From: an uncultured Gammaproteobacteria bacterium
GTDB lineage: Bacteria > Cyanobacteriota > Vampirovibrionia > LMEP-6097
DNA: 64,000 bases
Reading direction: 5' to 3'
Assembly (NCBI GenBank): GCA_964438425.1
Contig: CAYTKM010000002.1
Coordinates: 9,546 to 73,545, forward strand
The notes under the pieces were generated by a model. That model made no database searches. It was not told where the DNA came from and saw only the letters and a list, made by a program, of their open reading frames with translations. A program made the translations under genes and the position numbers. The stretch's first letter is position 1, and each line of letters starts with the position of its first letter. Below are positions 9,984 to 63,494 of the stretch, piece after piece.

Positions 9984-10059
9984 TGGTGGACCCGAGGTGA
10001 TTCGAACACCCGACCTCCTCGGTGCAAACGAGGCGCTCTACCAACTAAGCTACGGGCCC
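9984..10059 (-). tRNA. tRNA-Ala (anticodon UGC)
   Basis: 76-nt cloverleaf on the minus strand: GGGCCCG acceptor stem with the G3:U70 Ala identity pair, D-arm GCTT/AGTTGGTA/GAGC, anticodon stem-loop CCTCG-TTTGCAC-CGAGG, T-arm GGGTG-TTCGAAT-CACCT, and an encoded CCA. Confidence 0.95.
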
Positions 10060-15191: not shown

Positions 15192-16133
15192 ATGAAGATT
15201 TTAATTACAGGCGCATCTGGACTTATTGGTAATGAACTAAAAAAGCATATTGAAGCTAAAGGACATAGCTGGTCAGCATTGACTCGCCAAGAAGATAAGC
15301 TGGATGAAAGACATATATTCTGGAATATTGAAGAGAAGCGTATTGAAAAAGATCGTTTAGAAGGCTTCGATGCTATCGTGCATTTGGCTGGTGATAGTAT
15401 CGCTGATGGACGCTGGAATGATGAGAAAAAACAGAAAATCAGAGATAGCCGCGTGCATGGTACTCAGTTTTTAGTAGAAACTATAAAAATGCTTGAGCAT
15501 AAACCTAAGGTTTTTGTTTCAGCTTCAGCTATTGGTTTTTATGGTGATAGACCAGGTGAAGAACTGACTGAAGAAGCTAGCGCTCAGGATGGTAATTTTT
15601 TATCAATGGTCTGCAGAGAGTGGGAAGCTGCGACTGATCTACTTAAAGCAGAAGGTATTCGGGTAGCTTTACTTAGAACAGGCATCGTGCTCAGCCCTGA
15701 CGGTGGTGCACTCAAGCAGATGTTACTACCATTTAAACTTGGCTTAGGCGGCCAGCTCGGTGATGGCAAGCAGTATATGAGCTGGATAGATATTTATGAT
15801 ATGGCAGCGATTTATATGTATGCGATAGAAAATGAGCAGTGCGAGCATGCAATTAATGCAGTCGCTCCGTACCCAGTAACTAATAAAGAATATACTAAAG
15901 TGCTGGGTGATGTAATTAGTAGACCAACTATTTTTCCAGTACCTGAATTTGGCTTAAAAGCACTTTTTGGTGAGATGGCGGATGCGCTTTTACTAGCTGA
16001 TGTTAAAGTGATTCCAGCTAAATTGGAAAAAAGCAGCTTTCAGTTTAGGTATCCAGATTTAAAGGCATCACTAGAACACTTATTAAATGGTAGAGAGCTT
16101 CATGCTGAAGATCCTACTATGCAAGTAGCGTAG
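15192..16133 (+). CDS. TIGR01777/YfcH-family NAD-dependent epimerase/dehydratase-like protein (DUF1731 C-terminus)
   Basis: N-terminal Rossmann ILITGASGLIGNEL. Overall length and layout match the YfcH family. Confidence 0.75.
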   Translation: MKILITGASGLIGNELKKHIEAKGHSWSALTRQEDKLDERHIFWNIEEKRIEKDRLEGFDAIVHLAGDSIADGRWNDEKKQKIRDSRVHGTQFLVETIKMLEHKPKVFVSASAIGFYGDRPGEELTEEASAQDGNFLSMVCREWEAATDLLKAEGIRVALLRTGIVLSPDGGALKQMLLPFKLGLGGQLGDGKQYMSWIDIYDMAAIYMYAIENEQCEHAINAVAPYPVTNKEYTKVLGDVISRPTIFPVPEFGLKALFGEMADALLLADVKVIPAKLEKSSFQFRYPDLKASLEHLLNGRELHAEDPTMQVA

Positions 16134-16319
16134 TTTAGTTTAATAGTTTAACTCATTATTAGTTTTCGATCTAAGCATCGAAGTGCTGCTGGGTCTTTGT
16201 GGTTCTGATATTCTAATTATTATTTAAGCTTCGCTTGATTCGTTATTGAAGTTAATAAAATCTTTACCTTATAGGTGGTTTAAATTTAATTATACTAATA
16301 TTAAATAAATTATAAAATT

Positions 16320-16440
16320 ATTTTAAATATTCTTGAAATTTAGAAGTTTACTGTAAATTTAGCTGCAATTTAGAAATATTTTCTAAATGCAGTCGTTTTT
16401 TAGAATTTTTAAAAGTTTGATGGAAATTATTTAAAATATT
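16320..16440. repeat. cluster of TTTAGAA(A)TATT-type motif copies, including the near-palindrome atttagaaatattttctaaat
   Basis: Same AT-rich motif family as at 5.9, 32.8 and 45.9 kb. Confidence 0.5.
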
Positions 16441-16613: not shown

Positions 16614-17492
16614 ATGTTAAGTATTGACGCTATAAAAAATGAGGCTTTAGCATCCGCCAAGGATCGTATACCTCCTCAATGGGCTCAGCTTAGTCGTTTT
16701 TCGCAAGGTATTATAGCTAAGCAAGACGAAAAAAACCAAGAGGATGCTCGAAAAGTTGGTGTTAATCTCGGTGCTAGTAAAATTAGAAAAATGGAGAGGG
16801 ATGTTAAGGGGATTGTTAATCCTCGTATTAATCCTTTAAAGTCTCCGATAAACTTTTTGATCGATTTTTTCCCTGGTGGAGCTAGTACTAATAAGCAACT
16901 TAATAGTAAGTTGTCTTCTATTAATAATCCTAACAGTGATAAAGACTTTGAGGCTAATGCTTTAACTAGATTAAAATTTTATGATTCACTTTTAGGGGAC
17001 TTAAACAAGCGTGTTCCTAATAAGGGTTTTATGAAGATTGAAAAATATCTTAATAAAGTTGAAGGTACTAAATATTACAATGAAACTGTTGATGGCTTAA
17101 ATAGTTTCCTGGATTATGTGGCTAATAATATGGTAGAAACTAAGCAAAGTGGCTTTGTTGTTAAAGAGAATGATATCGGTCGTAAGACGCATTTTTATAA
17201 GTCTATGCTAAAAGAAAGTTTTTACAATGAATTAAAATCTATTAAAGGTCGTTTTTCTAGTGATACTGGTGACCTTAGACATCTAGCTCAAGCACCTAAG
17301 CTTAAACAGGCTCTCGAAAAAATAGATAAAATTCTGCAATCTGATCCAGCGGCTAAAGCTAACCAACGCGCTAAATTGAAACGTCAACAAACACACAGAA
17401 CGCCGCGCAATAATATTGGTAATTTTAACCGTGGTGGCTCTCAAGCAAGAAATAATGCTGCAAACCTCAGTCGCAGACCAGCTAGAGTTTAG
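16614..17492 (+). CDS. hypothetical protein with a basic Arg/Asn-rich C-terminal tail
   Basis: 292-aa ORF with no recognisable domain. Confidence 0.5.
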   Translation: MLSIDAIKNEALASAKDRIPPQWAQLSRFSQGIIAKQDEKNQEDARKVGVNLGASKIRKMERDVKGIVNPRINPLKSPINFLIDFFPGGASTNKQLNSKLSSINNPNSDKDFEANALTRLKFYDSLLGDLNKRVPNKGFMKIEKYLNKVEGTKYYNETVDGLNSFLDYVANNMVETKQSGFVVKENDIGRKTHFYKSMLKESFYNELKSIKGRFSSDTGDLRHLAQAPKLKQALEKIDKILQSDPAAKANQRAKLKRQQTHRTPRNNIGNFNRGGSQARNNAANLSRRPARV

Positions 17493-32196: not shown

Positions 32197-32637
32197 ATGT
32201 CACAAAAAAACTTTAGTTTAATACTTGCTGGAATCATCTGGATTTTAGTTGGTTTGAGAATCGGCGCGCGCGCGCTAGGCTGGCTTGAACCGCATTTTGC
32301 AAATCCAAGCCCTTGGTTAGCACTTTTAGTGGTATCTATTTTAATTGCAATTGGTAAATCTGCTACTGTCCTAAAAAAATCTGTGAACCGTAACCTAGGC
32401 AATTTACATAAAATTAGTAATGATGATTCTAAAGATTATTTTTTGGGAGTGTTTAAATTATTTGGAGTTAAGGGCTTAATTCTGATTATTTTAATGATCG
32501 CACTTGGATTTTTATTAAGGTACTTAAAAGCGATCGGCTTAGACCCTTATAATGTATTTGGCTTCATTTATTTAGGTATTTCTGGTGCACTTATTCTAGG
32601 TTCGCTAAATTATTTTAAAGCCGTTGCTAAAAAATAG
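32197..32637 (+). CDS. hypothetical small membrane protein
   Basis: 146-aa ORF with four hydrophobic segments, just downstream of batB. Confidence 0.45.
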   Translation: MSQKNFSLILAGIIWILVGLRIGARALGWLEPHFANPSPWLALLVVSILIAIGKSATVLKKSVNRNLGNLHKISNDDSKDYFLGVFKLFGVKGLILIILMIALGFLLRYLKAIGLDPYNVFGFIYLGISGALILGSLNYFKAVAKK

Positions 32638-32816
32638 CTAGTTAAAGTAGTAGTAGACTTTTCTATAAACAAAACTCTTTAAATGATTATTGATTTTCTT
32701 GTTTACTAGTGCTTATCTGCAATAAAATTTCACTATAACTTCAGAGTTGGTGTAGTATTTTAGTAGTTAAAAACTATTAATAATTATTTATAAAAAAATT
32801 CTAAAAAACACTAAAA

Positions 32817-32900
32817 TTTAGATAAATATTATAAATTTACCCTTAATCTAGAAAAATATTCTAATTCTTAATGTTTTTTGTAAGAAAATTATAAATTTCC
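32817..32900. repeat. three ~30-bp-phased copies of the AT-rich 20-bp motif (ttagataaatattataaattt, ctagaaaaatattctaatt, taagaaaattataaattt)
   Basis: Seen in the sequence. Same family as at 5.9, 16.3 and 45.9 kb. Confidence 0.6.
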
Positions 32901-33276
32901 TTGTGACTAAAAAAGCTATTAGTAATAATTTTTAAGCTGGCTTTGATAAATATAAACTAATACTACTATTGCTTGATAACACTTAAAAACCGCTAATGTA
33001 CGTGTTAGTAATAAGTTATTGATCCCTAATTAATATGATTAGATTTGGCAGCACATTATAGGCAAAATAAATACTTGCGGTCATAAATTAGATCATTTAA
33101 AACCTTTATAGATAAACAGATACTCCTTTACACTTTTGCTAATTGAAAAATCTGTAAAAGCTTAAATAAAAAACACATAAAATGCCCTTAAAACTTAGCA
33201 AATCAGCATCAGCATTATTATTTCTGCAAAAATTATTTGAGAATATATCAGTTTTAGCGCTAGAATAGCATTAGTT

Positions 33277-34626
33277 ATGAATCACAACTCGATTGATACA
33301 TTGTTAAATGATCGCCGGGACCAATATCCCACTTTAAACCAGATCAATGCTGCAACTGTCCTTGCCCAAAACAGCAAAGGCTTGTACGTAGATTTAAACA
33401 AGTTTTATGAGGCTTTTATACCAAGCGCTGAATTGAACGCGGACAGCACTTATAAAAACGGTGATAAAGTTGATGTGTTTGTTTTACATGAAGATAAAAA
33501 ACTACCTGGAGTCTTTAAAGCCAGTATTAAGAAGATTACTGAAGCGCGCAAGTGGGAAGATCTAGATCATCTTAAGGACCAAAAGCTAGCTGCTGAGATT
33601 ACTAGAATCGTAAAAAGTGGTGTTGAAGCTAAACTTAAAACGAATGATATCGTAGGCTTCATCCCATTTAGATATATTGATATTAAAACTCCAGTACTAA
33701 AAGGTCTGGAACAAAGCGAGTGGGTAGGCAAAGAAGTTCAGGTTAAAATCCATGAGTTAGACCAAAGCAAAAATAAAATTATTTTAGAGCAAAGATCTAT
33801 CAGTGAAGAGCAGCGTAAAGCTCGCGAAGTGCAAATCATCGAAAGTCTATCTATGGGACAGGAGCTTACAGGAAACATAGTTGCGATTGAAAAATTTGGT
33901 ATGTTTGTTGATGTTGATGGTTTAGATGTTTTAGTACCAACTTCTGAAATTAGCTGGGGTCGTTTTAGATCAGTAAGTGAACTTTATAAAGTTGGTGAAA
34001 CTGTAAGTGGTAAAGTGTTTAAGCTTGATCCTGATAAAAAACAAGTGGCGATGAGTATTAAACAAATGCAGGCTGAGCCATGGTCTAGTTTGGATTTAGA
34101 AAAGTATCAGGCTAATAGTAAGCTGACAGCTAAAGTTGTTTCACATGCTGAATTTGGTTTTTTTGTCGAAGTTGAGCCTGGAGTTGAGGCTTTAGTACAT
34201 AAATCTAACTATGATGGCGAGCAAGCCCCGCCTAAAGGTAGCATGGTAAACGTGGAAGTAATTAGTCTAGATATTGATAAGAAACGTATGGGAGTGAGTA
34301 TGAAAACCAGTGATAATGAAAACTTAGCTACTAACAATCAAGCTAATAAAAAAAATGAGCAGTTTGCTGATAGCCCTTATACTAAAGAAGAGCACACTAA
34401 ACTGGCTGAAAAACCAGCAGCAGCAGTAGCAACTGATGATTTGACTATTCATCAAAACCAGGCTGAACCAGAAGCTAGGCAGGATAACACAGAGAAAAAT
34501 ATTGATATTTCAGATGCTAACGCTGCTAAATCTATAATCGACTCTAGTGATGATACTAAAGAAGTGGAAGGTAAATCTAAAGAGCAAGCTCCAGTAAAAG
34601 AGAAGGAGACTCAAAATGTCAACTAA
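33277..34626 (+). CDS. S1 RNA-binding domain protein (about four S1 repeats, ribosomal protein S1-like, with a low-complexity C-terminal tail)
   Basis: Repeated S1-like segments (GDKVDVFVL..., GQELTGNIVAIEKFGMFVDV..., GETVSGKVFKLD..., KLTAKVVSHAEFGFFVEV...). Shorter than canonical RpsA. Confidence 0.7.
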   Translation: MNHNSIDTLLNDRRDQYPTLNQINAATVLAQNSKGLYVDLNKFYEAFIPSAELNADSTYKNGDKVDVFVLHEDKKLPGVFKASIKKITEARKWEDLDHLKDQKLAAEITRIVKSGVEAKLKTNDIVGFIPFRYIDIKTPVLKGLEQSEWVGKEVQVKIHELDQSKNKIILEQRSISEEQRKAREVQIIESLSMGQELTGNIVAIEKFGMFVDVDGLDVLVPTSEISWGRFRSVSELYKVGETVSGKVFKLDPDKKQVAMSIKQMQAEPWSSLDLEKYQANSKLTAKVVSHAEFGFFVEVEPGVEALVHKSNYDGEQAPPKGSMVNVEVISLDIDKKRMGVSMKTSDNENLATNNQANKKNEQFADSPYTKEEHTKLAEKPAAAVATDDLTIHQNQAEPEARQDNTEKNIDISDANAAKSIIDSSDDTKEVEGKSKEQAPVKEKETQNVN

Positions 34627-43072: not shown

Positions 43073-44224
43073 ATGGTATCCACATTTCTAAACGAAGATC
43101 AAAGCTTATTTAAAAAAATGATAAGTGAAATAGCTGCAAAAGAGTTTGCACCGATAGCAGCTGAACTTGATAAAACGCATAAATTTCCGCGTGCGAACTT
43201 AAAACTTCTAAGCGAGCTTGAGGTTATGGGACTTACTATCGATGAAAAATATGGCGGTGCTGGCATGGATTATATCTGCTACTCGCTTGCGACTGAAGAA
43301 ATCTCTAAAGCTTGTGCGAGCACAGGTACTATGTACTCGGCGCACCTGTCATTATGTGCGATGCCGATAGAAATCTTCGGTAATGAAGAGCAAAAAAAAC
43401 ATTATCTGCCTAAATTATGCTCTGGTGAATACCTGGGTGCTTTCGCTCTATCTGAGCCTGGTAATGGCTCTGATGCGGCGGCTATGCGCACTAAGGCTGT
43501 TGAAGATGGCGACCACTATGTTCTTAGCGGTTCTAAAGCCTGGATCACCAATGGCGCTGAAGCTGACGTTTACATAGTGCTTGCACAAAGTGATTTTGAA
43601 CTAAAACACAAAGGTGTAACGGCTTTTATTGTAGAAAAGGGTACACCAGGCATGAGTTTTGGTAAACCTGAAGATAAACTGGGTATTCGCGCGAGCGCGA
43701 CTTGTCAAATTCATTTCGATGATTGTAAAGTACCGAAAAAAAATATTTTAGGTAAGCCAGGTGATGGTTTTAAGATTGCGATGCAGACTCTTGATGGCGG
43801 TAGAATTGGTATGGCTTCGCAGGCTATCGGCATAGCGCAGGCAGCTTTTGAAGATTCGATTAAATATGCTGAAACTAGAGAAGCTTTTGGTGAAAGTATC
43901 TTAAATTTTCAGGCTATTCAATTTAAACTTGCTAATATGTCGACAGATATTGAGGCGGCGCGCTTGCTAGCTTACCAGGCAGCATGTTTGCATGATGCTG
44001 GCAAAAAATTCACGCGCGCCGCGGCTCAAGCTAAGCTGTTTGCTTCTGAAATGTGTATGAAGCATACGATTGAAGCAATTCAGATCCATGGTGGCTATGG
44101 CTACACTACTGAATATAATGTTGAAAGATATCTAAGAGATGCTAAAATAACAGAAATCTATGAAGGAACCTCAGAAATCCAAAGAATTGTGATTGCTAAG
44201 GAACTTCAAAGAGAATATCTATAA
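43073..44224 (+). CDS. acyl-CoA dehydrogenase (short/branched-chain type)
   Basis: Full-length ACAD fold motifs, including the C-terminal YEGTSEIQRIVIAKEL. Confidence 0.9.
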   Translation: MVSTFLNEDQSLFKKMISEIAAKEFAPIAAELDKTHKFPRANLKLLSELEVMGLTIDEKYGGAGMDYICYSLATEEISKACASTGTMYSAHLSLCAMPIEIFGNEEQKKHYLPKLCSGEYLGAFALSEPGNGSDAAAMRTKAVEDGDHYVLSGSKAWITNGAEADVYIVLAQSDFELKHKGVTAFIVEKGTPGMSFGKPEDKLGIRASATCQIHFDDCKVPKKNILGKPGDGFKIAMQTLDGGRIGMASQAIGIAQAAFEDSIKYAETREAFGESILNFQAIQFKLANMSTDIEAARLLAYQAACLHDAGKKFTRAAAQAKLFASEMCMKHTIEAIQIHGGYGYTTEYNVERYLRDAKITEIYEGTSEIQRIVIAKELQREYL

Positions 44225-45683
44225 TCCTATGGATTATCTACCTCCGAACTATAATCATTTAACCACCCCGCCAGCATATCAGATTGTCGCTGAACGACCT
44301 CACGGTGGCTTGAAATACTATGTGCCTGAGTACCATGAAGTGCGTAAGTATGAAGATAAATTGAAACTTGATCGCTCTGACCAGAGGCGCGAATATACAC
44401 GCAACAGGCAATCTCAGAAGTTAAATATTCCTCGTCAGCTAAGATCGGGTCGAGTTTTAACTCGTAAAACTTTAAAACCTACTAACCAGATGCGCACTAA
44501 AATGATAGTTGGCGCTGAAGATCTGCCAGTTATTAAATTGCCGGCTAGTAAAAATTACACCCAACGTTATATCGAGACTGGAACTCCTCCAGCAGCAGAG
44601 CTTGAAAAACAAGTAGAAGTTGTTAATCAGTCTAGCAAACTTAAAATACCTGATGATTTAGTTCCAGTAGAGCGCTCATCAGCCACTGAGCCTCAGGTAA
44701 ACAAGCAAATTGAAGCTAAAACTACTACTATTCAAGAGAAAGCCGCCGCCGCTGCCCCTGAGATGCTAGAGATCTATCAGATGGAAGAAAAAATTTCTAG
44801 TCAGTTAGATAAACAACAAGCTAACAAGAATGGCACGGAAATGCCGGCTAGTAATTTAGAGAAGCAGGCTAGTACTACTAGTAAGCGGGGTAGCGCGCTG
44901 ATGAATATGGAAAGGTACAACCGCAACCATAAAATTGGTCTAAAAATCCCATTCCTTAAAAAGCGTCTTAAAAACCGTAGGGTAAAAAAAAACTTTAATC
45001 CCGAAAATATAATCGAGGAAGAAATTGAGATTGAAGCTCAAGTTGAAGAAGAGCAGCATAGTGCTTTTGAGAGGATTAAAAGTAAGCTAAACATCATTAG
45101 ACAAAAAGCCGCCGATAACATTATGATGACTACCATTCGTCATAATGAAGAATATATTATTGATGTAGCTGGCTCTAAGGTTAATTTCTCGGAGTACGGT
45201 ATTAATAGAGTCCCGATAAGTGTCGCTGATCAGATCTGGCTTAAAAAAGCTAGACATTACTTTATTAACGCTCGCGAAAAAGGTATCAGAATAGGCTCAT
45301 CACCTAAATATACTACAATGCCGATTCTAGAAAGTTTATGGGCAACAGCTGAGCATTTTAAAATTAACCAGAAAAGATTTTTGGTGCAGTTATATAATGA
45401 AACCAGATTTAATCCGAACTTAATCGGTCAAGCTGGTGAGCGTGGTTTAGGTCAGTTTAAAAAAATGACTGCTAATCATTATAAATACGACTGGCATAAA
45501 ATGAAACAGGGCAATCAAACATATGCTTACCAAGCCTATGCAGCTGCTAGTTTTGTAAATAAAGTCGGTGAGTCGGCTTACAACCATGCGGGCGCTCCCG
45601 GTAAGTTATATTCTGGTGCTATTTCTAGAAGATTAAAGAAAATTGAAAAAACACGAGTACCGAATTTACTATCTAGTAATTAA
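44193..45683 (+). CDS. lytic transglycosylase (SLT) domain protein with a long basic N-terminal region; real start possibly the ATG at 44229
   Basis: SLT catalytic region YNETRFNPNLIGQAGERGLGQF (E-S/T...G-L-x-Q). Confidence 0.6.
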   Translation: MLRNFKENIYNPMDYLPPNYNHLTTPPAYQIVAERPHGGLKYYVPEYHEVRKYEDKLKLDRSDQRREYTRNRQSQKLNIPRQLRSGRVLTRKTLKPTNQMRTKMIVGAEDLPVIKLPASKNYTQRYIETGTPPAAELEKQVEVVNQSSKLKIPDDLVPVERSSATEPQVNKQIEAKTTTIQEKAAAAAPEMLEIYQMEEKISSQLDKQQANKNGTEMPASNLEKQASTTSKRGSALMNMERYNRNHKIGLKIPFLKKRLKNRRVKKNFNPENIIEEEIEIEAQVEEEQHSAFERIKSKLNIIRQKAADNIMMTTIRHNEEYIIDVAGSKVNFSEYGINRVPISVADQIWLKKARHYFINAREKGIRIGSSPKYTTMPILESLWATAEHFKINQKRFLVQLYNETRFNPNLIGQAGERGLGQFKKMTANHYKYDWHKMKQGNQTYAYQAYAAASFVNKVGESAYNHAGAPGKLYSGAISRRLKKIEKTRVPNLLSSN

Positions 45684-45870
45684 CGATTATTTAAGTGATT
45701 ATAATTTAAAAATTGCTGTCATCTTGGCTTGATATTAAAATATAGAGCCATAAAAGATATTAAGAATAATTATTAAAAGTGCATGGCTAGTAAATTAGCA
45801 CTAACTAGTCAGGTTTTTTAGCGTATATGCTGCAATGCTACTCTATAATCATTTTCTAAGTGTAGAAGAA

Positions 45871-45990
45871 ATTAGAAAATAATTATAAATAAAGGGTATT
45901 TTTATAAAATAATTATAAATTTAAACATAATTTAGAAAATAATTATAAATTTAACGCTTTTTTATAAAAAAATTATAACTTGTGTTTTTT
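45871..45990. repeat. four tandem ~30-bp repeats, each containing (T)AGAAAATAATTATAAATTT
   Basis: Units begin at about 45871, 45902, 45931 and 45961. This is the best-preserved array of the dispersed AT-rich motif family. Confidence 0.75.
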
Positions 45991-46111
45991 AACTATTAGT
46001 TTTAACTGAATTTAAAAGCACTTCTAATCTGATCTGCTCTAGTAAAGCTAGGATCTTATTTTCGATAACTAGAGATTTAAATTTATTTAAGTTGATAGCA
46101 GTTTTAGTCAT
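45989..46111 (-). CDS. possible small ORF (40 aa, MTKTAINLNKFKSLVIENKILALLEQIRLEVLLNSVKTNS)
   Basis: ATG with an AGGAT SD 6 nt upstream. Below the ORF-track threshold. Its 3' end overlaps the repeat array. Speculative. Confidence 0.25.
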   Translation of the reverse strand: MTKTAINLNKFKSLVIENKILALLEQIRLEVLLNSVKTNS

Positions 46112-46330: not shown

Positions 46331-47074
46331 TTACTTAATAGTTTCAAGTTCAGCTGGAAATTTAACAGATTTCACTTCTTCTATATATTTACTAAACGCA
46401 GCTACACTTTCATCGAACTGACTGGCAAACCTACGCACAAATTTAGGCTTGAAAAGATTAAAACGACCTAGTAGGTCATCACTTACTAGTACCTGACCAT
46501 CAGTGCTTGCCCCCGCACCAATACCTATAGTCATAGCTTGAATAGTACCTGTTATATTGCTGGCGATTTCATCTGGAATCATTTCTAGCACTATACCTGA
46601 AACTTTTAGCTTGTCAAGCTTAATAGCCATTTCCAGTAATAACTCTTTATCTCGAATCACTTTACTATCTGTAAACTTATCAAAGCTTTGCGGCGTGTAG
46701 CCAATATGACCAAAAACTTTTTTACCCTCAAAGACTAAAGTTTGGATGATATCAAGTGCCTTAGACTCTGTGCCTTCAATTTTTACATAATCAGCTCCGT
46801 TTTCATACAGCGCGCGCGCGTCAGCTAAAGCCTCTTTAATCGGTTTTTGGTAGCTAAGATAGGTGTAATCTGCGATAATTTGCTTTTCAGGAGCTCCTTT
46901 GCGAACTGCTCTTAAGAAAATTAGCATCTCTTCAGGGCTTAAATCCTGGGTACTTTCATGACCTAATGCGACCATAGCCAGGCTATCGCCGACTAAAATA
47001 TAATCTATCTCTGTGCAAGCAAGTGCTCTTGCGGTGTTAAAATCATAAGCAGTTAGTATAGAAATCTTTTGCAT
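46331..47074 (-). CDS. panB: 3-methyl-2-oxobutanoate hydroxymethyltransferase
   Basis: Typical PanB length and motifs (...GHIGYTPQS..., ...IGIGAG...). Confidence 0.9.
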   Translation of the reverse strand: MQKISILTAYDFNTARALACTEIDYILVGDSLAMVALGHESTQDLSPEEMLIFLRAVRKGAPEKQIIADYTYLSYQKPIKEALADARALYENGADYVKIEGTESKALDIIQTLVFEGKKVFGHIGYTPQSFDKFTDSKVIRDKELLLEMAIKLDKLKVSGIVLEMIPDEIASNITGTIQAMTIGIGAGASTDGQVLVSDDLLGRFNLFKPKFVRRFASQFDESVAAFSKYIEEVKSVKFPAELETIK

Positions 47075-47411: not shown

Positions 47412-50228
47412 TTAATCAAGTTTTAATAGCACTGGACTAATTTCAGCTTCAACATCAGCAGGCTCTATGTCAAGCTCTTCTAGATCTCTACTAGATGAAG
47501 AACTAGTTGCATTAATGAAGATAGAGAAGTTTCTTAAGTCTTTTAATAAGCTTTTTAGCATTTTCTTATCCTGTTTATTAATCTTGTCATCTTCGTTGTA
47601 GTCAAACAAGTCATAAAATGAATTAGTATCTACAGTAGCTAAGTTACGGTCACGGTCAAACAAGAACTCTTTGCGGGCTTTTTTAAACTGTTTTTTATAA
47701 GCCTTATTAAGTTTTTTCTTAGGTAACTTGCCATCGAGATTTACATCAAGTAATTCAGCAGCATACAGGAATCTATGAACCTGAATATCACAGCTTGCAT
47801 AGTCTAAACTACGATCTAAAGCATCAACATTACTATCATTGTTTAAATCGAATTTAGGATGGTTAGTTGCAAGTGTGCTAGCAGGAGTAGTATTTTGGCT
47901 ATCGTTAATCAATAGATTTAATTCGCTAGCTAATTTTAATTTCTCTAAGTTCTCTAGATTACTATTTTTATTAACATCAAAACCATTATCCTCAAGTGCA
48001 TTAGTCGCTTCCACGCACGCTAATGGCGTAGGTGCTTGCGGCTGGACTACTGGAGTCTGGCTTAGATCTATAGTCGGGTTAGGTGAGCCAGTGCCAGCAG
48101 TTACTACATCGATCACAAAGCTTTTATCAACAGTAATTCCTGAACCGCTATCATTACATTCGATAGTAATTGTATACTGTGGTTTAGTATTTTTATCAGT
48201 ACTAACTGTAGTTTTAAGTTCCATGTTTGAAAAGCTAATATCGCTGCTGGTATTTACAAGCGAGCAGGCTATTGAATCATTTTCTGGATCCGTCACAACT
48301 ACTCTAGAGATTAAAGTACCAGCAGGTTGGCTATCTTGCACTTCCTGAAACTCTAAATTAATAGAATCTACTGGAAAGTTACCATTAGGAAGCTTAGATC
48401 TTAAGACAGGAGTCATTAAACCTTCTGAAATATACCAGATGTTAGTAAAATCCCAATTCTGGTAAGAAGCTTGCTGTCTTTTAGCTGTGCTGTTCAATAA
48501 AACTGCTACTGTAGCTGCATTACTATTAGTATTAAAGTTATTAAATAGATCTGGTGTGATACCAGCTGCTGTTACATCGGTAAAGTACGCATCAGTAAAA
48601 CTGATATCTTCGATATCGTCATTATTCAAGAATTCACCGACTAGTGGATACTCTTCTAAGTCTATAGTATCGACTACACTACCATCAGCATATGAGTTAA
48701 TGATATCAGTGTCACCACCGTCAATCTCACCGATTAAACCAGCTGCGGCGCCACCATCAGCAAAAACATTCACCTTAGCATATGAATTTTTGATTACGAT
48801 AGTGTCAGTGCCACTTGAGCTATCACCGATAAGACCGCCAGCTTCAGCGCCAGCAGTCAAAACATTACCTTCAGCAAAAGACTCTTCTATTAAAGTGTCA
48901 TCGTTAACATCACCGACTAAACCACCTATGTTCTCACCATTTACATTAGCGTCTATATATGCACAAGACTTTTTAATAGTTAAAGTATTATCGTCAATTT
49001 CGCCGACTAAGCCACCAGTATCACTACCTAAATTATTTAAGGTAATCAAAACATCCGAATTTAAAATCGTTAGATCAGTTTGAGCGTCACCTACTAATCC
49101 CCCTACATCGTTACCGAAAGACTCTATAAAGCCTGTAAATTCAGAGTTAGTGATAGTAGTAATGCCATTGGTGATACCAACTAGACCACCAACGTTGTTT
49201 ACTTCGGTTTTGCTACCCTGATAGAAGAGATCAGCCTGAATATTAATATTGTCAAGTTCAATATTACCGAGAGTTTCACCTGCTAGACCACCAAAATTAC
49301 GTGGCGTGCCAGAAAAATTAGGATTATCCACGATTACTAAAGATGAACCAGTGACGTAAATATCACTAATTTTACTATCAGCAGGAATCGCAGAAAGTAC
49401 TAGTGCAGCGTTAAAATTCCCACTATTAACAGTTATATTATCTAAAAAAGCATTTTTTAGGTAGATAGGTTTAATAACACTAAAGTAACCACCGATAAGA
49501 CCTGCTGCTGCTGCATCAGTACTCGAGTGCATAACGGTTATATTATTTGCTGTAATATTTTCATAAATACCAGCTTTAGTACCACCAACAAGAGCTCCTA
49601 AACGATTGTCACCTTCTATAATAATATTATTTAAAGTAATATTCTCAACTTTAGTATCATTTATAGGGTTATTAATATCGAAATCATCTTCATTAGTCGC
49701 TATTAAAGCTGCTACTTTTTCAGTTCCGATAAAGGTACTTTGAGAGATTGTGACATCATCAAAGCTTGAATTTTCAGCTTTACTAAAGATAGCTACTCTT
49801 TCGGTACTACTACTCAGTACTATATTATTGAAGTTAATATTTTTTACTAGAGAGTTGTTTATTTCTCTAAATAAACCCAGTCTGGTACTGCCGCCAGTAG
49901 TATCTATGGCTTCTAGGTTAGATACAGTAAAGTTGTTACCATCTATAACTACACAAGATAAAGCCTGATCATTTAAGTCAGCTGCTACAAAGGTAGTATT
50001 AGCGCTATCGCAATCTATATTGCCTGCTAGTTTGTAGTAGGTATCATCAGCAGTAATATTTCTAAGATCATTACAATCAGAGATAGTTTCTTCGATTAAA
50101 CCTGTAGTACAAGTACTAGGTAGACCAACTGAGCTAGGACTAGTGGTAGCGAAAGACAGTGCGTTTGCGGCTTGCAAGCCAGCCAAACACATAACCATGG
50201 TGAAAAAAGTTGTATAAAATCTTTTCAT
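47412..50228 (-). CDS. giant secreted surface protein (about 938 aa mature): N-terminal signal peptide, repetitive right-handed beta-helix-like central region (GGLVG/GGLIG repeats), C-terminal ~150-aa dockerin/EF-hand-like plus basic module
   Basis: Signal peptide MKRFYTTFFTMVMCLAGLQAANA; the ORF-track start at 50270 adds 14 aa upstream. Dozens of G-G-L-(V/I)-G-containing ~22-aa repeats. C-terminal Ca-binding-loop-like DLNNDSNVDALD and FDYNEDDKINKQD flank a Lys/Arg-rich helix. Confidence 0.7.
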   Translation of the reverse strand: MKRFYTTFFTMVMCLAGLQAANALSFATTSPSSVGLPSTCTTGLIEETISDCNDLRNITADDTYYKLAGNIDCDSANTTFVAADLNDQALSCVVIDGNNFTVSNLEAIDTTGGSTRLGLFREINNSLVKNINFNNIVLSSSTERVAIFSKAENSSFDDVTISQSTFIGTEKVAALIATNEDDFDINNPINDTKVENITLNNIIIEGDNRLGALVGGTKAGIYENITANNITVMHSSTDAAAAGLIGGYFSVIKPIYLKNAFLDNITVNSGNFNAALVLSAIPADSKISDIYVTGSSLVIVDNPNFSGTPRNFGGLAGETLGNIELDNINIQADLFYQGSKTEVNNVGGLVGITNGITTITNSEFTGFIESFGNDVGGLVGDAQTDLTILNSDVLITLNNLGSDTGGLVGEIDDNTLTIKKSCAYIDANVNGENIGGLVGDVNDDTLIEESFAEGNVLTAGAEAGGLIGDSSSGTDTIVIKNSYAKVNVFADGGAAAGLIGEIDGGDTDIINSYADGSVVDTIDLEEYPLVGEFLNNDDIEDISFTDAYFTDVTAAGITPDLFNNFNTNSNAATVAVLLNSTAKRQQASYQNWDFTNIWYISEGLMTPVLRSKLPNGNFPVDSINLEFQEVQDSQPAGTLISRVVVTDPENDSIACSLVNTSSDISFSNMELKTTVSTDKNTKPQYTITIECNDSGSGITVDKSFVIDVVTAGTGSPNPTIDLSQTPVVQPQAPTPLACVEATNALEDNGFDVNKNSNLENLEKLKLASELNLLINDSQNTTPASTLATNHPKFDLNNDSNVDALDRSLDYASCDIQVHRFLYAAELLDVNLDGKLPKKKLNKAYKKQFKKARKEFLFDRDRNLATVDTNSFYDLFDYNEDDKINKQDKKMLKSLLKDLRNFSIFINATSSSSSRDLEELDIEPADVEAEISPVLLKLD

Positions 50229-50559
50229 GTTGTTTTTCCTCTTGGAACAAATCCTAACATATACAAACAAATAAAACTTAAGTTTTAGTGAAATTATCTT
50301 GATGATTTTTGTTGGGTTAAGCTATTTTAATTCTAAAGGCTTATAAACTTTAAAGCTTGGTATAGAAATGCTTTTGTACTTAAACATTACTCGTCTTATC
50401 TTTAAAAGTTGCTGTATGTGCGTAGATTTAAAGCTAAGTTCTTTTCTGTATTTAAATAGTTAGGCGTTTAAATTGTAAGTATTATATTTATTATACATAA
50501 AGTGCTTTTATTATATATAATTCTTTTTGGCACTACTGGTATGTAATTATGTTGATTTG

Positions 50560-50810
50560 CTAGTGAGGTTTCTTCTTATTTTATCTATTTGGGCTAAAGT
50601 CAGATCTCTTAAATAGTTCAAATAAAGTTTGAAATACTTTACATATTATTTACTGGAGCTGAAGTTAAATCTATTGGATATTTTAAATAAAGCTTGAAGT
50701 TCTCTACATGTTGTTTATTGGAACTGAAGTCAGATGCGTTAATCATTTTAAACAAAAGCCTACAATTTTCTATGTGCTATTTAGTGAGGGCTAAGCACTA
50801 ATAAGTATTT
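50560..50810. repeat. about four degenerate ~63-bp tandem repeats in the upstream region of the 47412..50228 gene
   Basis: Units of the type ttaaataaagYttgaa...ctgaagt(c/t)a(g/a)at... at about 50564, 50626, 50683 and 50748. Confidence 0.6.
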
Positions 50811-51122: not shown

Positions 51123-54102
51123 TTAGTTACTATTTTCAAGAGAGTCATCGAATGGTAACGCTTCTTCGTCAACTGATGTTTCAGTAACGATATCCGCTGG
51201 TAACTCATCATTATTTAAATCTTCTTGAACACTGTCATCTGATTGAGATGAGCTTGCAGCAGCAAAGATGCTGATGTTTCTTAGTTGTCTTAGAAGTTGT
51301 CTAAAGTATCTTTTATCTTTTTTGTTGATCTTATCATCTTCGTTATAATCAAATAGATCATAGAAAGAGTTAGTATCTACAGTTGCTAGATTACGGTTAC
51401 GATCAAACAAGAATTCTTTACGAGCTTTTTTAAACTGTTTCTTGTAAACATTGTTTAATTTTTTCTTAGGTAATTTACCGTCACGGTTAGTATCTAAGAT
51501 TTCAGCAGCGTGCAAGAATCTATGTACTTGTATATCACAATCAGCGTAGTCTAGGATTCTATCAAAGTTATCAATTAGATTATCATCGTTTAGATCAAAC
51601 TCTGGATAGTTAGTTGCTAGTGTCGCTGCTTGCGCGCTAGTTTCTTTACTATCTTGGATTAATAAGTTTAGTTTGCTTGCTAATCTTAATTTTTCTAAGT
51701 CTTCAAGTAAACCATTATTGTTGATATCAAAGCCATTGTTTACAAGTTCACTTGTCGCAGCTGGGCAAGCTAAAGGCTGTGGGTCACCGATTTGAGGATC
51801 AACAGTATTATCAGCTAAAGTCAAAGCTGGTCCTAAACCTTGACCAGTAATATTAGCCACTGCATTTAGAGGGAACACTCTAGTAATAGCTCTTTGTGAA
51901 CCGAAATCAGTACATTCAATCGTTAGATTTAAAACATCGCCTACATTGGCTGTTAAGTTACTAGCTAAAGAGATTGAAATATTGTCGTTAGAGTCTACGT
52001 CTAAAGTAAATAATGGGCTATTTTGTAAAACACATGTTACAGGATCTGTTTCAGGGTCTACTACTGTTACATTAGCAACTTTTAAACCAGCTATACCATT
52101 GTTTACTACAGCATTTTGATCTAAAGTGATACTTGATACTGGGTAGTTAGTGATTTTGAACCTTAATTCTGGAGTTGATAGACCATCTACGTTATACCAG
52201 ATGCTGTTGAAGTCAAAACCTACATAATTAGCTCTAAAGTTTTTGTCAGTGCTGTTAAGTTTTTGAGCAACAGTGCCTGAGCTATTATTAGTTGAAGAAG
52301 TGTTGAAGTTAGTCGCAAGTGTAGGTGCGAAGTTAGCTGAAGAACTAAAGTAAGCATCATTAAAAGTTACATTAATACCGTCATCATTGTTATTTACTTC
52401 ACCTACTAAAGGGTACTCGTCGTCGTCATTTGCAGTAACTAAATTACCATCAAAATATGAAGTGTTAATAGTGACATTGCTAGAACTTGAACTGTCCATC
52501 TCACCGATAAAACCACCAGCGTTATCATCTGTAGTAGAAAGGTTAACCTTAGAGTATGAATCAGTGATAATTACGTTATTAGCATCTACAACGAAACCAA
52601 CAAAAGAACCAACATCTTCAGCTGCACCGTTTATAGTACCTTTAACAAATGATTGATTAATATCGATACTATTACCTATACGTCCAGCAAAACCACCAAC
52701 TTCATCATCAGTAGCGTCAATATCAACTACGGCACATGTTTTATCAATATCTACAGCGCCACTATAGTTAGCACCAATTAAACCACCATTTAAACTATTA
52801 TCGTGATTTACATTACTATCGATAGTTACAATAGCATCAGAATTAGAGATAGTTAGATTACCATTACTAGCACCTACGATACCACCAACTTCATCATCAA
52901 AACCAGTAATAGTACCTTCAAACTTTACATTTTCAAAAGTATTATCAGTTGAATTAGCGTAACCTACGATACCACCAACTTTATCAATATTAGCTGAACC
53001 GATTTGATTAAAAGGAGCCAAATCTTTTACGTGTTTGATATCAGCTTTAACTAAGATATCCTTTAATCTAACACCATCCTGATAGTACTCACCAATTAAA
53101 CCACCGATGCTACTACTATTGTTGTTTGAACCACCTAAGTAGAGTAAATTTGAGTTAGTAATATTAACATTATTAACTACAGTATCTTTTCTAACAAAGC
53201 TTGAAAGTAGACCAGAAGCTGAACTTCTAGCTTTTACTTCGATGTTGCTTCCAGTAATGTCTGACCAGTTATTTGCTGTAGTAGAACCTAAACCGAAGAT
53301 ACCACCAGCATGGCTATATGTACCACCATGATCAACTACAACATTGGTTGCACTGATTTCGTTGGCTACAGTATCTTTCGCGCTACCTACTAAACCACCT
53401 ACGCGGGTACCAGCTTTAACAGAAGAGTTTGTTAAGTTAACGTTTGAGATAGTTTTAGGGAAATTAGGGTAGTTAGCTACTAGATCTAAAACGTTAGTGT
53501 CATCAGCATTAATACTGTAATCGTTTAAGTTTTGAGAGTAAGAACCTTCCATATTACCTACCAGCGCGCCAGCTCTTTCTCTAGTAGCTTCAACGATAAT
53601 ATTATTTAAGCTTAAGTTCTCAAAAGAACTGTTTTGTGAACCACCAACGATACCTACGCCATATTTACCTTTAATGTTGAAGTTCTCGAAGTCTAAGTTT
53701 TTAAGAATAGAATTTCTAAGTTGTTCGATTAAACCCATGTAATTTCTACTAGTGTTGTTTACAGTAAAGTTAGAAATTTTATAGTTAGTTGTAGAATTTT
53801 TCTGACCATCGATAACGATACAGTTTAAGTTGTTATTAGCTAAAGAGCCTGAGCTAGTAATACCATTACAATCAATGTCATTGGTTAAGGTATAAGCTGT
53901 GCCACCGTGTAAATCCAGCAAGTCTGTACAGTCTGATAAAGTATCAGTTGCTAAAGGCAATGTGCAGTTTGATTGTGGACTTTGTACAGTAGATGGGGCC
54001 ACTGTTGTTATAGTTACGGCACTAGGTGCAAAGGCACTGGCATCTGGCACTGTGCTTACCCCTATTGCTGTAACTAGAAATAATCTAGTAATTTTTTCAG
54101 TT
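51123..54102 (-). CDS. giant secreted surface protein, paralog of 47412..50228 (beta-helix repeats plus the same C-terminal module). The N-terminal signal peptide lies in the +1 frame relative to the ATG at 54100-54102, across a poly(A)6 tract
   Basis: Large ORF 51123..54050 (GTG). Upstream, ATG 54102-54100 gives MKNKLKK then stops. Adding one A to the A6 tract (plus-strand T6 54082-54087) yields MKNKLKKITRLFLVTAIGVSTVPDASA..., a canonical signal peptide. The C-terminal 150 aa are about 80% identical to the paralog. Confidence 0.7.
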
Positions 54103-55656: not shown

Positions 55657-57528
55657 TTAATTTAATGGTTGATTAATATCTAACTTATCATCACCATTTA
55701 ATAAATTAGGTGCATTTTGTTTAGCTAGGCAGATTAAAATGTCTCCACGATCATAGGGCTGAGCCGAGTGAGCGAAGAAAAAATTATCTTTTCTTTTAAG
55801 TATAATTGGTAGCCAGTCACTATCTGCGTACTCGGGAATACGGTATTCACTAAGTACTCCACTTGAATCTAAATGCCTTTCAAAGATATGCACGTTTTGC
55901 TGATCGATAATATCTTTCCATTCGGCGATATTAACAACTTTGGTATAGGCTAGATCACCGCTAATCTCTTTTACTAAATGACTACTAATACTTTTATCTG
56001 GAGTACCGATAGCTGGATAGACATAGGGTACCTGATACATTTCGCGGGCAAGCTGGCAAACTAAAAAGTTAACTTCAGAATTAGAAGTGGTGGCGATAAG
56101 TAAGGTTGCTTTACTGATTTCTGCTTGATCTAGTACATTCGTATCTAAACAATTTCCACAAACTGTAATTAATTTATCACTACTGGATCGATTGCAATAA
56201 ATCTGATTATTATCAATGATACAGACTTTTTTGCCCATATCTGTAAACACTTTACCGATAATCCGCCCTAAAACATTGCCACCAACTACAATAATGTAAC
56301 TGTTATTAATTAGTGATTTAGTAATGCTGGCTGCTTGCCTGGCTGTAAGTCCTTGCAGTAAAACCGTAAAGATAATGGTCGCAAAAACTAAAGATTCTAC
56401 TATATAAGCATCTGTCACTCCTTGCTCGCGCATGACGATGGTAAAAAGTGAAGCCACTGAGGCTGAAACAATACCCTTAGGTCCGATCCATGATAAAAAT
56501 AGTTTTTCTGAGATCTTTAGTAAGCCTATATTAGATAGAAACACAGCTAAAGGTCTGACTAAAAAGACTACACCTAAGATAACGATAATTCCAGGCACGC
56601 CTAACCCACTTAACTTCTCGAAGTCTAAATCAGCCGCGATCAGCACAAACAAGATCGAAATGAACAGAATGGAAAGCTGACCTTTAAAGCGCTTTAAAGT
56701 GTTTAGCTGTGGTACATTTTCTTGCTGCACAGCAAAACCTGTAATCACCACAGCTAAAATGCCAGTATTAGGCTCGAAATTATTACTTAAAGCGTAGGTC
56801 GCAAAAACCCAAGCTAGCACGACCAAGTTTTTTAAATCTGTCGGTATAAACTTTTTAGAAGCTAGTTTACCTAGTAAAAAGCCACTTACATAACCTACCA
56901 CTAAACCTATAAAGAGCTTAGTTAAAAAAGCAATCAAAAACACTTGCCAGGCATTAACTTCCTGTGCCATGTCAGGGTTAAGTTTCATTTCCTGCTCTAC
57001 GAGTACATACTCAAGCACTGCTACTGAGATGAAAGCCCCGAAAGCATTAGATAAAATACCTTCACTTCTTAAAATAGTCGCTAAATCCCGCTTTACTTTT
57101 ACCCTACTTAAGATCGGGTTGATAACCGTAAGACCAGTAATACTCATAAAAGCACCAAATAGCAGACTCAAAGCCCACTCAAGGCCTAATATCAGATGAC
57201 ATAAAATAGCACTACCTAGAACCGTAATTCCAAGTCCTATGGTGAGCATATTTCTAACAGATTTATCAACCTTTTTAAAAGATTTAAAATCGAGACTTAA
57301 GCCACCTTCAAATAATATTAAAGCTACCGCCAGTGATACCAGCACCTCGAAGCCGTCACCGAGTACAGTTGGTTGGATTAAATTTAAAAACTGTGGACCT
57401 AAAAGAACCCCAATTATCATTAAAAAAACGATGCTAGGCAATTTTACTTTAGCTGCTAGCACTTGCATAGCCATCCCCGCAAAAGTGGCGATAACCAAAG
57501 TCGACATTAGTGAAGCGCTTAAGTCCAT
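55657..57528 (-). CDS. monovalent cation:proton antiporter (CPA1/NhaP-Kef-like) with a C-terminal RCK/TrkA-N domain
   Basis: About 12 TM segments followed by a Rossmann [15 protein letters not shown]...KVCIIDNN region. Confidence 0.75.
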
Positions 57529-58629
57529 TTTAGAAAAGCTTTTATAAACTCATCTAATATACTATCACCATTAATGACAGCGTCTACATCACGAGTCTCG
57601 AATTTAGTACGATGATCCTTAACCCTACCTTCGTCAAATACATACGATCTAATAGCATTTCCCCAGGAAGGTAAGACATTTTCGCCTTTTAGCTCAGCAA
57701 TTTTTCGTTGTTGCTCTTCAACTTGCAAAGCTAGTAGTTTAGATTTTATAAGTTCTATAGCGCGCTCTTTATTTTGAACTTGGCTGCGCTCTTCTGTGCA
57801 CTTTACAGTTATATTAGTCGGTATATGCTTAACGCGCACTGCCGTTTCAACTTTGTTTACGTTTTGCCCGCCCGCCCCGCCAGCGCGCATGGTAGTAATG
57901 TCTAAATCACTTTCTGAAAAACCTTCAAGTTGAGTGTTCTGTTTAATAAGAGGTGAAACTTCTAAGCCAGCAAAGCTAGTCTGGCGACTGTCAGCTGATG
58001 ATTTAAAAGGTGATTTGCGTACTAATCTATGTACGCCCTTTTCAGCAGCTAGGTAACCATAAGCGAAGTCCCCAACTATTTTTAAAGTCGCTGACTTTAT
58101 ACCAGCTTCTTCACCATTTGAGCGCTCCAGTAAAGTGACTGTATAATCTTTAGTTGCTGCCCAGCGAGTATACATTCTAAGTAAAATTTCAGCCCAGTCC
58201 TGCGCGTCAGTACCACCAGCACCAGCATTAATCGAGATAATAGCCGAAAATTCATCGTAAGGTCCAGACATTAGCTGCATAAATTCAAAACCTTCCAGCT
58301 CCTGAATGAGCTTTAAATATTCATTTTCAAGCATAGTACGCACTTCAGGATCTTCTTCTTCAGTTAGAATCCCATGCATCTCTTCGAGATCATGCACGCG
58401 GGTTTGCCAGCTAGAAACTTTTTCTAGTAAAGATTTTTTGCGCCCTAATGTTTTACTAACTTCCTGAGCTTTATCGCTATCCTGCCAAAATTCTGGGTCT
58501 AAAGTTTGCTGTTCGAGTTCATTTACTTCAGTTTTAAGCTTTTTAAGGTCAAAGACACTCCTTAGCAGCCTGATATTTTTCTGTAAGTAAGTTTAAATCA
58601 ATTTTATTTTCAAGATCACCAGTTTTCAT
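57519..58629 (-). CDS. prfB: peptide chain release factor 2, with the canonical programmed +1 ribosomal frameshift at CUU UGA C (UGA = 58549..58551)
   Basis: Frame 0 ORF 58629..58549 encodes [26 protein letters not shown] ending ...AAG GAG TGT CTT TGA C. The +1 frame (58550..57519) continues as [24 protein letters not shown]... into the ORF-track product, which carries the SPF motif and the GGQ motif ([18 protein letters not shown]). Confidence 0.9.
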
Positions 58630-62390: not shown

Positions 62391-63494
62391 ATGGATTTTA
62401 AAGACTACTACCAGATTTTGCAAGTTAGCCGCCAGTCAGATGATGCTGAGATTAAAAAAGCATATAAAAAACTGGCTAAAATATACCACCCAGACAGCTC
62501 GCAGGGCTCAGAAGAAAAGTTTAAAGAAATTAATGAGGCTTATGCTGTTTTAAAAAGCTTCGATTCTAGGCGTAAGTATAACGATATTTACGATAGTCAG
62601 AGCACTTATCAAAGTCAGCATTCTAAAGAAAGCACTTATAAATCTGCTACCCAGAATCAGGCATACAAGCAAAAAATGTATAACGCCTACACTAAAAGTA
62701 ATCCATATAAAGAAACAGGCGCCAAAAATACTACAGATAACTATCGTGGTACTGAAACTAAGGCTCCGCCACCTAACTCCGGTACCAAAGGTAAAAAATC
62801 TGACCCACCAGAAGGTAGTTTTAGTGATTTCTTTAAAAAGTTCTTTGGTGATAATCAGCAAGATAGTGCAACTTATTCTAAGCAAGCTAATTCAAATGAT
62901 AAAACTAAAAACACTAATAGTAGCTCCAGTGCTAGCTCAAGCACTAAACGTAAGTCAAATGCTAAGCGCGGCGAGGATTATGAGATGAATATCGAGCTTG
63001 ATCTTGAAGATGCTTATCACGGTAGTACCCGCAAGCTTGAAATTAGTAGTACAGGACAAGGCTTAAAAAGACTGGAAGTTTTAATACCCGCCGGCGTGCG
63101 TGAAGGAAATCGCATAAAGATTGCTGGTGAAGGTAAGGCTGGTAAAAATGGTGGTGAAAATGGTGATCTATACCTGAAAATTAGAATTAAGCCACATCCG
63201 CTGTATCGAGTGGAAGAAGATGATACTCATATGGAACTAGATTTAGAGCCTTGGGAAGCTATTTTAGGTTGCGAGAAAGAAATTACTACTTTAGGCTCTA
63301 AAGTCGAGATTGTGATTCCAGCAGGTACCCCTCAGGGGAAAATTCTAAGATTGAGATCGAAAGGCTTGCCTAATGCCAAAACTGGCATGCAGGGCGATCA
63401 TTATGTGCATGCTAATATCGCTATTCGCGAGTATTATGAGCCTGAAGAGCTGGCGATTTACCGTAAACTTAGAAGGTTTCACGAAGGTTTTTAG
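62391..63494 (+). CDS. DnaJ-family co-chaperone of the CbpA type: J domain, low-complexity linker, DnaJ C-terminal domains, no zinc-finger region
   Basis: J domain with HPD ([14 protein letters not shown]). Ser/Thr/Gln/Lys-rich linker. C-terminal ...[21 protein letters not shown]... Confidence 0.75.

Follow-up and report, generated by a model that had tools for sequence, protein, structure and literature searches.

Exactly Phased Palindrome Arrays at Gene Boundaries in an Uncultured Bacterium: Candidate Docking Sites for an Oligomeric, Possibly Lrp/AsnC-Type, Protein

Why would a 20-bp AT-rich motif recur in tandem, in steps of about 30 bp, at several intergenic loci of one bacterium, and what, if anything, would bind it? 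The locus that raises this question lies at 45.9 kb in a 64-kb stretch of DNA (the window), which lies within a JGI metagenome contig of 316 kb (Ga0450804_1104956); the 8.4 kb before the start of the window and the 9.5 kb past its end were also scanned. The original prediction had placed the motif at four loci with a periodicity of about 30 bp. It is found at all four, with its sites aligned in 30-bp register at each, and the periodicity can be sharpened to exactly 30 bp within arrays. The four arrays occupy 5924-6030 (A1), 16310-16416 (A2), 32788-32894 (A3) and 45872-45978 (A4, the index array), none of them with a strand, and two more (A0 and A5) were found outside the window. They form modules of about 110 bp, roughly one per 17 kb, each holding three to four copies of a palindrome, and the distances between neighbouring sites within the six arrays (16 of 16) are exactly 30 bp. 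The repeat unit is the 17-bp palindrome TTAGAA-N5-TTCTAA, in which the degenerate half-site TTATAA is frequent; the palindrome is without imperfection at 6014-6030 and 16370-16386. With this degenerate half-site, the index array reads TTAGAAAATAATTATAA. One palindromic variant had been reported before, and rightly so; that the whole family is palindromic, and that it matches the binding consensus of E. coli Lrp, had both been missed.

Circularity was avoided by scoring the window with the SELEX consensus of E. coli Lrp, yAGhAwATTwTdCTr (quoted in PMC5554404), which is independent of the window sequence. The sequence TAGAAAATTATTCTA fits this consensus at 15 of 15 positions. Two perfect matches (6015 and 32849) and four with one mismatch occur in the 64 kb; the arrays make up 0.7% of the window, yet they hold both perfect matches and five of the six with at most one mismatch. 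The sole such match outside the window arrays is an isolated perfect palindrome, CTAGAAACTTTTTCTAG, at 58411-58427, just upstream of the RF-2 ORF (57519-58397, minus strand) and possibly inside a frameshifted 5' part of the RF-2 gene. A phased score was obtained by summing the consensus mismatches over four positions 30 bp apart, and the totals for the window arrays are 5 (A1), 9 (A3), 10 (A4) and 11 (A2). Array A1, with four 17-bp sites at 5924, 5954, 5984 and 6014, has one mismatch at 5955, one at 5985 and none at 6015. Array A2 consists of full sites at 16310, 16340 and 16370 and a left half-site at 16400, with position-weight-matrix scores of 18.5, 17.4, 22.2 and -2.2. Its third site lies inside a longer G/C-clamped palindrome, CTGCAATTTAGAAATATTTTCTAAATGCAG, with TCGTTTTTT coming next (16362-16402); read on the plus strand, the arrangement resembles an intrinsic terminator. 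The sites of A3 are at 32788, 32818, 32848 and 32878, with the zero-mismatch match at 32849. Three units had been counted here, at 32817-32900; the array itself stands, and the count must be raised to four units, starting from 32788. The four units expected at 45871-45990 are present in A4 at 45872, 45902, 45932 and 45962 (matrix scores 22.7, 24.7, 26.4 and 21.8), and a possible fifth site, CTATAATCATTTTCTAA at 45843-45859, lies 29 bp ahead of the first with two consensus mismatches. A1, A3 and A4 thus each have four full sites (A4 with the possible fifth), A2 has three and the half-site, and A0 and A5 have three each. Tandem Repeats Finder detects only two of the window's arrays (period 30, 74-78% matches), and in the output of a repeat finder a single family of about 110 nt joins all four at 60-72% identity.

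The phased palindrome arrays are genuine and far beyond chance. The 20-mer of the original prediction, allowing up to three mismatches, gave 7 matches against 0.2 expected, and a two-site pattern gave 9 matches against none in 100 shuffles. The period of 30 bp is unique: at the other periods from 20 to 44 bp, a phased total of 9 or less is reached nowhere in the window. Second-order Markov sequences (10.6 kb, trained on intergenic DNA) reached a total of 11 or less in 0 of 200 runs, and a Markov model trained on the arrays' own composition of 13% GC did so in 1 of 200. Since neither Markov nor shuffled sequence yields comparable arrays, the refutation that had been named in advance, namely equally good periodic matches in AT-matched random sequence, fails. 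With a matrix built from the sites, phased triples in the contiguous 82 kb score 58-74 at five arrays, and the highest score elsewhere is 6. In the same 82-kb scan, hardly any strong single site is seen outside the arrays, which means that sites occur either in complete arrays or nowhere.

The anatomy of the unit gives insights into what has been conserved. The information profile of 19 sites reads TTAKAA-AAWWA-TTMTAA, with conserved positions that are mirror-symmetric (T/A, T/A, A/T, K/M, A/T, A/T) and a centre of A/T. Conservation is confined to about 20 of the 30 unit positions, and the other 10 or so carry no information. Site identity is 0.74 within arrays versus 0.72 between arrays, and spacer identity is 0.35 versus 0.31 expected by composition. 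Sites that are equally alike within and between arrays, together with spacers at the random level, indicate that the arrays are not recent tandem duplications, and spacers of this kind held at a fixed length fit selection on the sites and their spacing instead. The few G/C bases of the spacers are also ordered: of the 40 in the 16 internal gaps, 35 are found among the five middle positions of 13 (permutation p<5e-5). As a result, G/C maxima recur every 10 bp along the unit, at positions 4, 14 and 23-26, on a background that is otherwise pure A/T. DNA-curvature prediction, a check suggested earlier, was carried out with Bolshoy wedge parameters, for which phased A-tract controls behaved as expected. 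The predicted ratio of end-to-end to contour length is 0.52-0.74 for the arrays versus a window mean of 0.94, and the window arrays rank 1, 2, 4 and 5 in predicted curvature among all 127-bp segments, with A1 as the most curved segment of the 64 kb.

Scanning with the Lrp consensus can also reveal copies outside the window. Two further arrays were found blind in this way, each with three sites 30 bp apart: A0 at 3316-3392 of L084, in the sequence that flanks the window on the 316-kb contig, and A5 at 1816-1892 of L103, another contig of the same sample set (33% GC) that carries a paralogue of a window surface protein. With these, the arrays number six in about 102 kb and are spread over at least two contigs. 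The host assemblies are clonal, being 100% or 99.995% identical to one another, and the best homologues of the S1-domain protein adjacent to A3 reach no more than 49% identity and belong to unclassified MAGs. Five loci around such homologues, one set of 96.5 kb from five relatives that share the S1-folB-pabB order, contain no array; their best phased triples have 8-13 mismatches versus at most 7 for all six arrays. The gap that holds A3 measures 639 bp (32638-33276) versus 28 bp in two syntenic relatives (L101 9973-10000 and L104 6448-6475), and the gene order around it, a 146-aa membrane-protein gene followed by the S1-domain gene, is conserved. Intergenic regions of the host seem generally expanded, with 14 gaps of at least 300 bp in the 64 kb. 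Wider searches were carried out in several collections. A loose two-site pattern gave at least 79 single matches among genome contigs, in unrelated AT-rich taxa, and a stricter three-site pattern was present in none of those listed. In a collection of metagenome contigs without the host organism, a three-site pattern gave 9 matches, all of them near-identical 30-bp tandem repeats on other AT-rich contigs. No similarity to the arrays was found among 72,556 plasmids, and a phage and virus collection returned only a 32-nt AT-rich chance match in Sulfolobus viruses. Judged by the loci from the five relatives, the arrays appear to be specific to the host lineage. One of the metagenome matches was considered as a candidate relative and rejected: an unrelated 22%-GC contig (L096 7-186, Ga0136644_10035638) has six 30-bp units, the first five of which carry TTAGATAAAT[ATG]TTCTAA, nearly the same palindrome. 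Its spacers are conserved, and in our own reading of the sequence the other strand encodes a repeated decapeptide, DHLEYLSNHS, so that by its sequence the resemblance is best taken as a coincidence.

Where the arrays lie relative to genes bears directly on their possible role. A1 begins 19 bp past the stop of ORF 4796-5905 (plus strand) and ends 67 bp short of the T-run that belongs to the terminator (6104-6119, minus strand) of the convergent ORF 6245-6583 (minus). A4 also sits between convergent genes, 189 bp past the stop of 44193-45683 (plus); on its other side, a 40-aa ORF (45989-46111, minus) has its stop 11 bp away, and panB (46331-47074, minus) 353 bp away. A5 fills most of a 151-bp gap between two convergent genes. 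The remaining three are found between co-directional genes. A2 lies 177 bp past the stop of 15192-16133 (plus) and 198 bp before the ATG of a Pfam-less ORF, 16614-17492 (plus); A3 lies 151 bp past the stop of 32197-32637 (plus), and the ATG of the S1-domain gene, 33277-34626 (plus), follows it after 383 bp. For A0 the upstream stop is 34 bp away and the next start about 320 bp, the latter being our own reading of an extended ORF. For each of these three arrays, the distance to the stop on the upstream side (34, 177 and 151 bp for A0, A2 and A3) is shorter than that to the following start codon (about 320, 198 and 383 bp). All six adjoin the 3' end of a gene, three are at convergent junctions, and none is at a divergent one. 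Convergent junctions make up about 15% of the total, which by our own estimate gives a binomial p of about 0.05 for three of six; with six arrays this enrichment is only suggestive. The earlier description of the window, with two arrays between convergent genes and two upstream of genes, is accurate. Promoter-like hexamers near the four window arrays did not exceed the shuffle level in a promoter scan, and no common motif was seen by eye in the array flanks. The neighbouring genes are mostly Pfam-less ORFs that do not belong to amino-acid metabolism, and two of them are paralogues of each other. A homologue search with one of these neighbours, ORF 4796-5905, against 5.8 billion proteins returned only the protein itself. 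This ORF is one of two adjacent pairs of Pfam-less ORFs of about 350-380 aa (3506-4570/4796-5905 in the window and 1900-3000/3426-4571 on L084), distant paralogues at 31% and 25% identity, and the pairs adjoin arrays A1 and A0.

Several other features were observed in the window. Immediately downstream of tRNA-Ala(TGC) (9984-10059, minus strand), a 211-bp unit is repeated in tandem, its two copies sharing 90% identity (9576-10059). Each copy holds the last 17 nt or so of the tRNA (atcacctcgggtccacca), both full copies are followed by a terminator-like hairpin, and a further truncated tRNA end is present at the distal end of the repeat; from its sequence, the arrangement looks like the att-site duplications of tRNA-integrating elements. 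Two paralogous Pfam-less genes on the minus strand (47412-50270 and 51123-54050; 952 and 975 aa) have repeated GGLVG-type motifs, and their remote homologues carry the GLUG motif PF07581. The 852-bp gap that separates them contains a 65-bp tandem repeat of 2.5 copies at 50597-50756, and a third paralogue (38% identity) is found on contig L103. A Fic gene 630 bp from A1 is possibly split into 6660-6959, which has no Pfam match, and 7149-7709, which has only the C-terminal half of the Fic domain together with a winged-helix domain (PF13412); it may represent a pseudogene or an assembly frameshift.

The features of the arrays can be compared with what has been described for the Lrp/AsnC family. 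Lrp-type dimers bind imperfect palindromes of 13-17 bp with an AT-rich centre, and their targets are clusters of regular sites two or three helical turns apart, at which the DNA is wound about an octamer (PMC2995911). For instance, BarR has 4-5 regularly spaced sites, a three-helical-turn spacing has been reported for E. coli Lrp (PMC10201364), and a model of the Grp octamer has 18 bp per dimer with 14-bp linkers (PMC2504300). The family as a whole uses one palindrome per dimer and forms octamers with the DNA-binding domains facing outward and DNA running around the particle (PMC2995911, PMC10201364, PMC2504300). The arrays share the AT-centred imperfect palindrome, the consensus match and the regular spacing of about three turns, along with half-sites that bear G/C and DNA that is predicted to be pre-bent. 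As a control, the Lrp region of E. coli ilvIH was scored in the same way; its best four-site total is 16 mismatches (period 32) versus 5-11 here, so the arrays come nearer to an ideal Lrp site than the model target of E. coli itself. A trait that the arrays lack is a place in the control region of target promoters, often those of the regulator's own gene or of amino-acid genes: three of six are at convergent junctions, with no promoter there to control, which speaks against promoter control, and the other three lie 198-383 bp upstream of the S1-domain gene or Pfam-less ORFs. No Lrp/AsnC homologue was found in about 102 kb by tblastn with E. coli Lrp or by Pfam search (including 40 ORFs), and the only winged-helix match in the Pfam search is the C-terminal domain of the split Fic gene (7149-7709). 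Binding specificities differ widely within the family (PMC2995911), and the consensus match in so distant a lineage could be a coincidence among AT-rich palindromes. Taking together the cognate gene that was not found in the 102 kb and the variable specificity of the family, we are fairly confident that the arrays are phased docking sites for an oligomeric, sequence-specific protein, and for that protein to belong to the Lrp/AsnC family we see about an even chance. Of the three ideas raised earlier, the one that gains backing is an array of nucleoid-protein binding sites in a phase of about three helical turns; it does so from the operator-like palindromes, the conservation of contact positions only, the rigid spacing and the predicted curvature.

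Other explanations must be weighed against an Lrp/AsnC-type protein. The same mechanism could be served by a protein from elsewhere, such as a DeoR-type octamer, a NarL/GacA-type response regulator, a phage-origin repressor or a lineage-specific nucleoid protein, and this we regard as a possibility to be taken seriously if not a likely one. The half-site TTAGAA/TTCTAA also occurs in the E. coli DeoR operator, TGTTAGAA-TTCTAACA, and in the Legionella LetA box, TNAGAAATTTCTNA; the 102 kb yielded no Lrp gene in the vicinity, and confinement of the arrays to the host lineage would suit a lineage-specific protein. However, the half-sites of DeoR and LetA/GacA are 0-2 bp apart and not 5 bp, a difference of half a helical turn, which means that the dimer geometry of these operators is not matched. 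The full 15-mer, including its spacing, is matched by the Lrp consensus only, and clusters of 3-5 phased sites are characteristic of Lrp-type proteins. A literature search on TTAGAA/TTCTAA operators turned up nothing relevant. It is unlikely that the arrays are simply intrinsically curved AT-rich DNA without a dedicated partner, whether as nucleation sites for an H-NS-like silencer, targets of a curved-DNA binder or passive spacers at gene ends. With 13% GC they are predicted to be among the most curved segments of the window, a CbpA-like gene (JGI name 'curved DNA-binding protein') lies within it at 62391-63494, and the neighbours of the arrays are orphan, possibly acquired genes. Yet curvature alone needs no 20-bp palindrome kept at 72-74% identity across loci, and it needs neither specific G/C positions nor an exact 30-bp superperiod over the 10-bp one.

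Placement beside gene 3' ends (6/6 arrays), half of them convergent, is also what would be expected of a selfish or neutral dispersed repeat (MITE, REP/BIME-like or minisatellite) accumulating where it is harmless, and sites present only in arrays, as well as the A3 gap of 639 bp versus 28 bp in relatives, as if DNA had been inserted, point the same way. Nevertheless we hold such a repeat to be quite improbable. Across five intergenic regions the similarity between loci is limited to single sites of at most 25 nt, and since it stops at the sites, the arrays do not behave like MITE-like, REP-like or iteron repeats. The array loci share no ends, inverted terminal repeats or target duplications; the spacers are at random identity, the units are equally alike within and between arrays, there is no stable hairpin, and no transposase or RAYT-like gene is annotated in the 102 kb. 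The REP-like option of the original prediction therefore survives in its location, at gene 3' ends and in convergent gaps, and fails in its hairpin, its conserved linker and ends, and its unit identity, which is equal within and between arrays. An element acting at the RNA level, be it a 3'-UTR stabiliser, a terminator or a small RNA, would account for positions just 3' of stop codons; folded as RNA, A1 is more stable than its shuffles (z -3.8 and -4.5), and site 3 of A2 lies within a 14-bp hairpin followed by a T-run. The folding of A2, A3 and A4 is, however, not significant (z -0.2 to -1.5), RNA stems in the arrays would be nearly pure A-U, and Rfam at gathering thresholds returns only tRNA-Ala and no match for the arrays. 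Folding that is inconsistent across arrays, together with the lack of an Rfam match, leaves no consistent RNA element or REP-type hairpin, and palindromes that are identical on both strands have no strand preference, which also counts against an RNA element; we consider one very unlikely. Least probable are replication or partition repeats, even though tandem repetition at a regular spacing, with units of about 20 bp, is reminiscent of iterons and parC-type centromeres. The arrays occupy six dispersed loci among housekeeping genes and have palindromes as sites instead of direct repeats, the cumulative GC skew climbs almost steadily over the window, no rep or par genes are near the arrays and the 72,556 plasmids show no similarity to them. 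The palindromic sites, the missing rep and par genes and the plasmid search together rule against iterons, an option that had been offered earlier and must now be dropped, and the replication/partition reading in general is already largely refuted.

If the arrays are bound by an oligomer of the Lrp/AsnC type, the following picture may be drawn. Each array would be a cooperative docking site for one oligomer, most likely an Lrp/AsnC octamer of four dimers, an interpretation for which we judge the chances to be roughly balanced. One palindrome would be occupied per dimer and read by two major-groove contacts, with the minor groove at the A/T centre turned toward the protein. The 30-bp spacing would place successive dimers on one face, with the DNA overwound to about 10 bp per turn, and the 110 bp or so of an array would make one wrap around the protein core. 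With half of the arrays at convergent junctions and the rest nearer to the upstream stop, the complexes might be mainly architectural or insulating at gene boundaries, perhaps as a transcriptional roadblock or a supercoil trap, and they could also regulate the downstream gene where one is present. We infer from placement that an architectural role would be at least as important as a promoter-regulatory one. Going further, the arrays can be pictured as lineage-specific positioning modules, each of about 110 bp of curved DNA with one feast/famine-type octamer, set about 17 kb apart at gene boundaries (with a preference for convergent ones) and acting as topological or transcriptional insulators that trap supercoils or stop read-through; such modules would be a protein-based counterpart of REP/BIME elements and a bacterial analogue of nucleosome positioning. 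This wider picture is speculative, and we think it doubtful.

Natural targets of Lrp-family proteins are notoriously degenerate, which makes both site prediction and the study of octamer wrapping on native sequence hard. The arrays described here are near-ideal in this respect, with consensus-grade palindromes, an invariant 30-bp spacing, three to four sites each and a 10-bp alternation of A/T and G/C that is predicted to pre-bend the DNA. Should a feast/famine protein bind them, they would offer a ready-made natural sequence on which the structure of the wrapped complex could be studied, and their convergent placement would suggest an architectural, non-promoter role for the family. ChIP data from E. 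coli have raised the suspicion of such a role, which is hard to isolate there. Alternatively, if another protein binds, the arrays would mark an abundant, sequence-specific chromosome-organising factor in an uncultured lineage.

Among known systems, plasmid iterons and parC-type centromeres likewise have regularly spaced tandem units some 20 bp long, but they are direct repeats at one locus beside rep or par genes, whereas the arrays are palindromes at many chromosomal loci. The REP/BIME elements of enterobacteria are also dispersed short palindromes in regular clusters, found in 3' intergenic and convergent regions, and nucleoid proteins and gyrase bind to BIMEs. A REP is rich in GC and folds into a stable hairpin, and REPs alternate in orientation and have a small number of conserved linker types; the palindromes of the arrays, by contrast, are A/T-rich and without stable folding, and their linkers are free in sequence and fixed in length. 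Eukaryotic and archaeal nucleosome-positioning sequences, with their 10-bp WW/SS pattern, resemble the arrays in the 10-bp alternation of A/T and G/C, the length of about 110 bp and the strong predicted anisotropic bending. In the arrays, however, the 10-bp pattern overlies a sequence-specific palindrome at every third turn, and we know of no histone-like wrapping protein for the host organism. The likeness to Lrp/AsnC operator clusters (E. coli Lrp at ilvIH, archaeal BarR, Grp, FL11 and E. coli AsnC) extends to an imperfect 15-bp palindrome centred on A/T, complete agreement with the E. coli Lrp consensus, clusters of 3-5 regular sites about three helical turns apart and an overall length of about 110 bp, as expected for one DNA-wrapping octamer. 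The arrays differ from natural E. coli Lrp targets in lying nearer to the consensus (totals of 5-11 versus 16 for ilvIH) and in their invariant 30-bp spacing, and from Lrp/AsnC clusters in general in that they occur only as complete arrays, are convergent in half of the cases instead of at promoters and have no link to amino-acid genes. The arrays are most likely an unusually stereotyped, dispersed variant of Lrp-type operator clusters, in an uncultured lineage that lacks close relatives, with their non-promoter placement as the most unusual feature.
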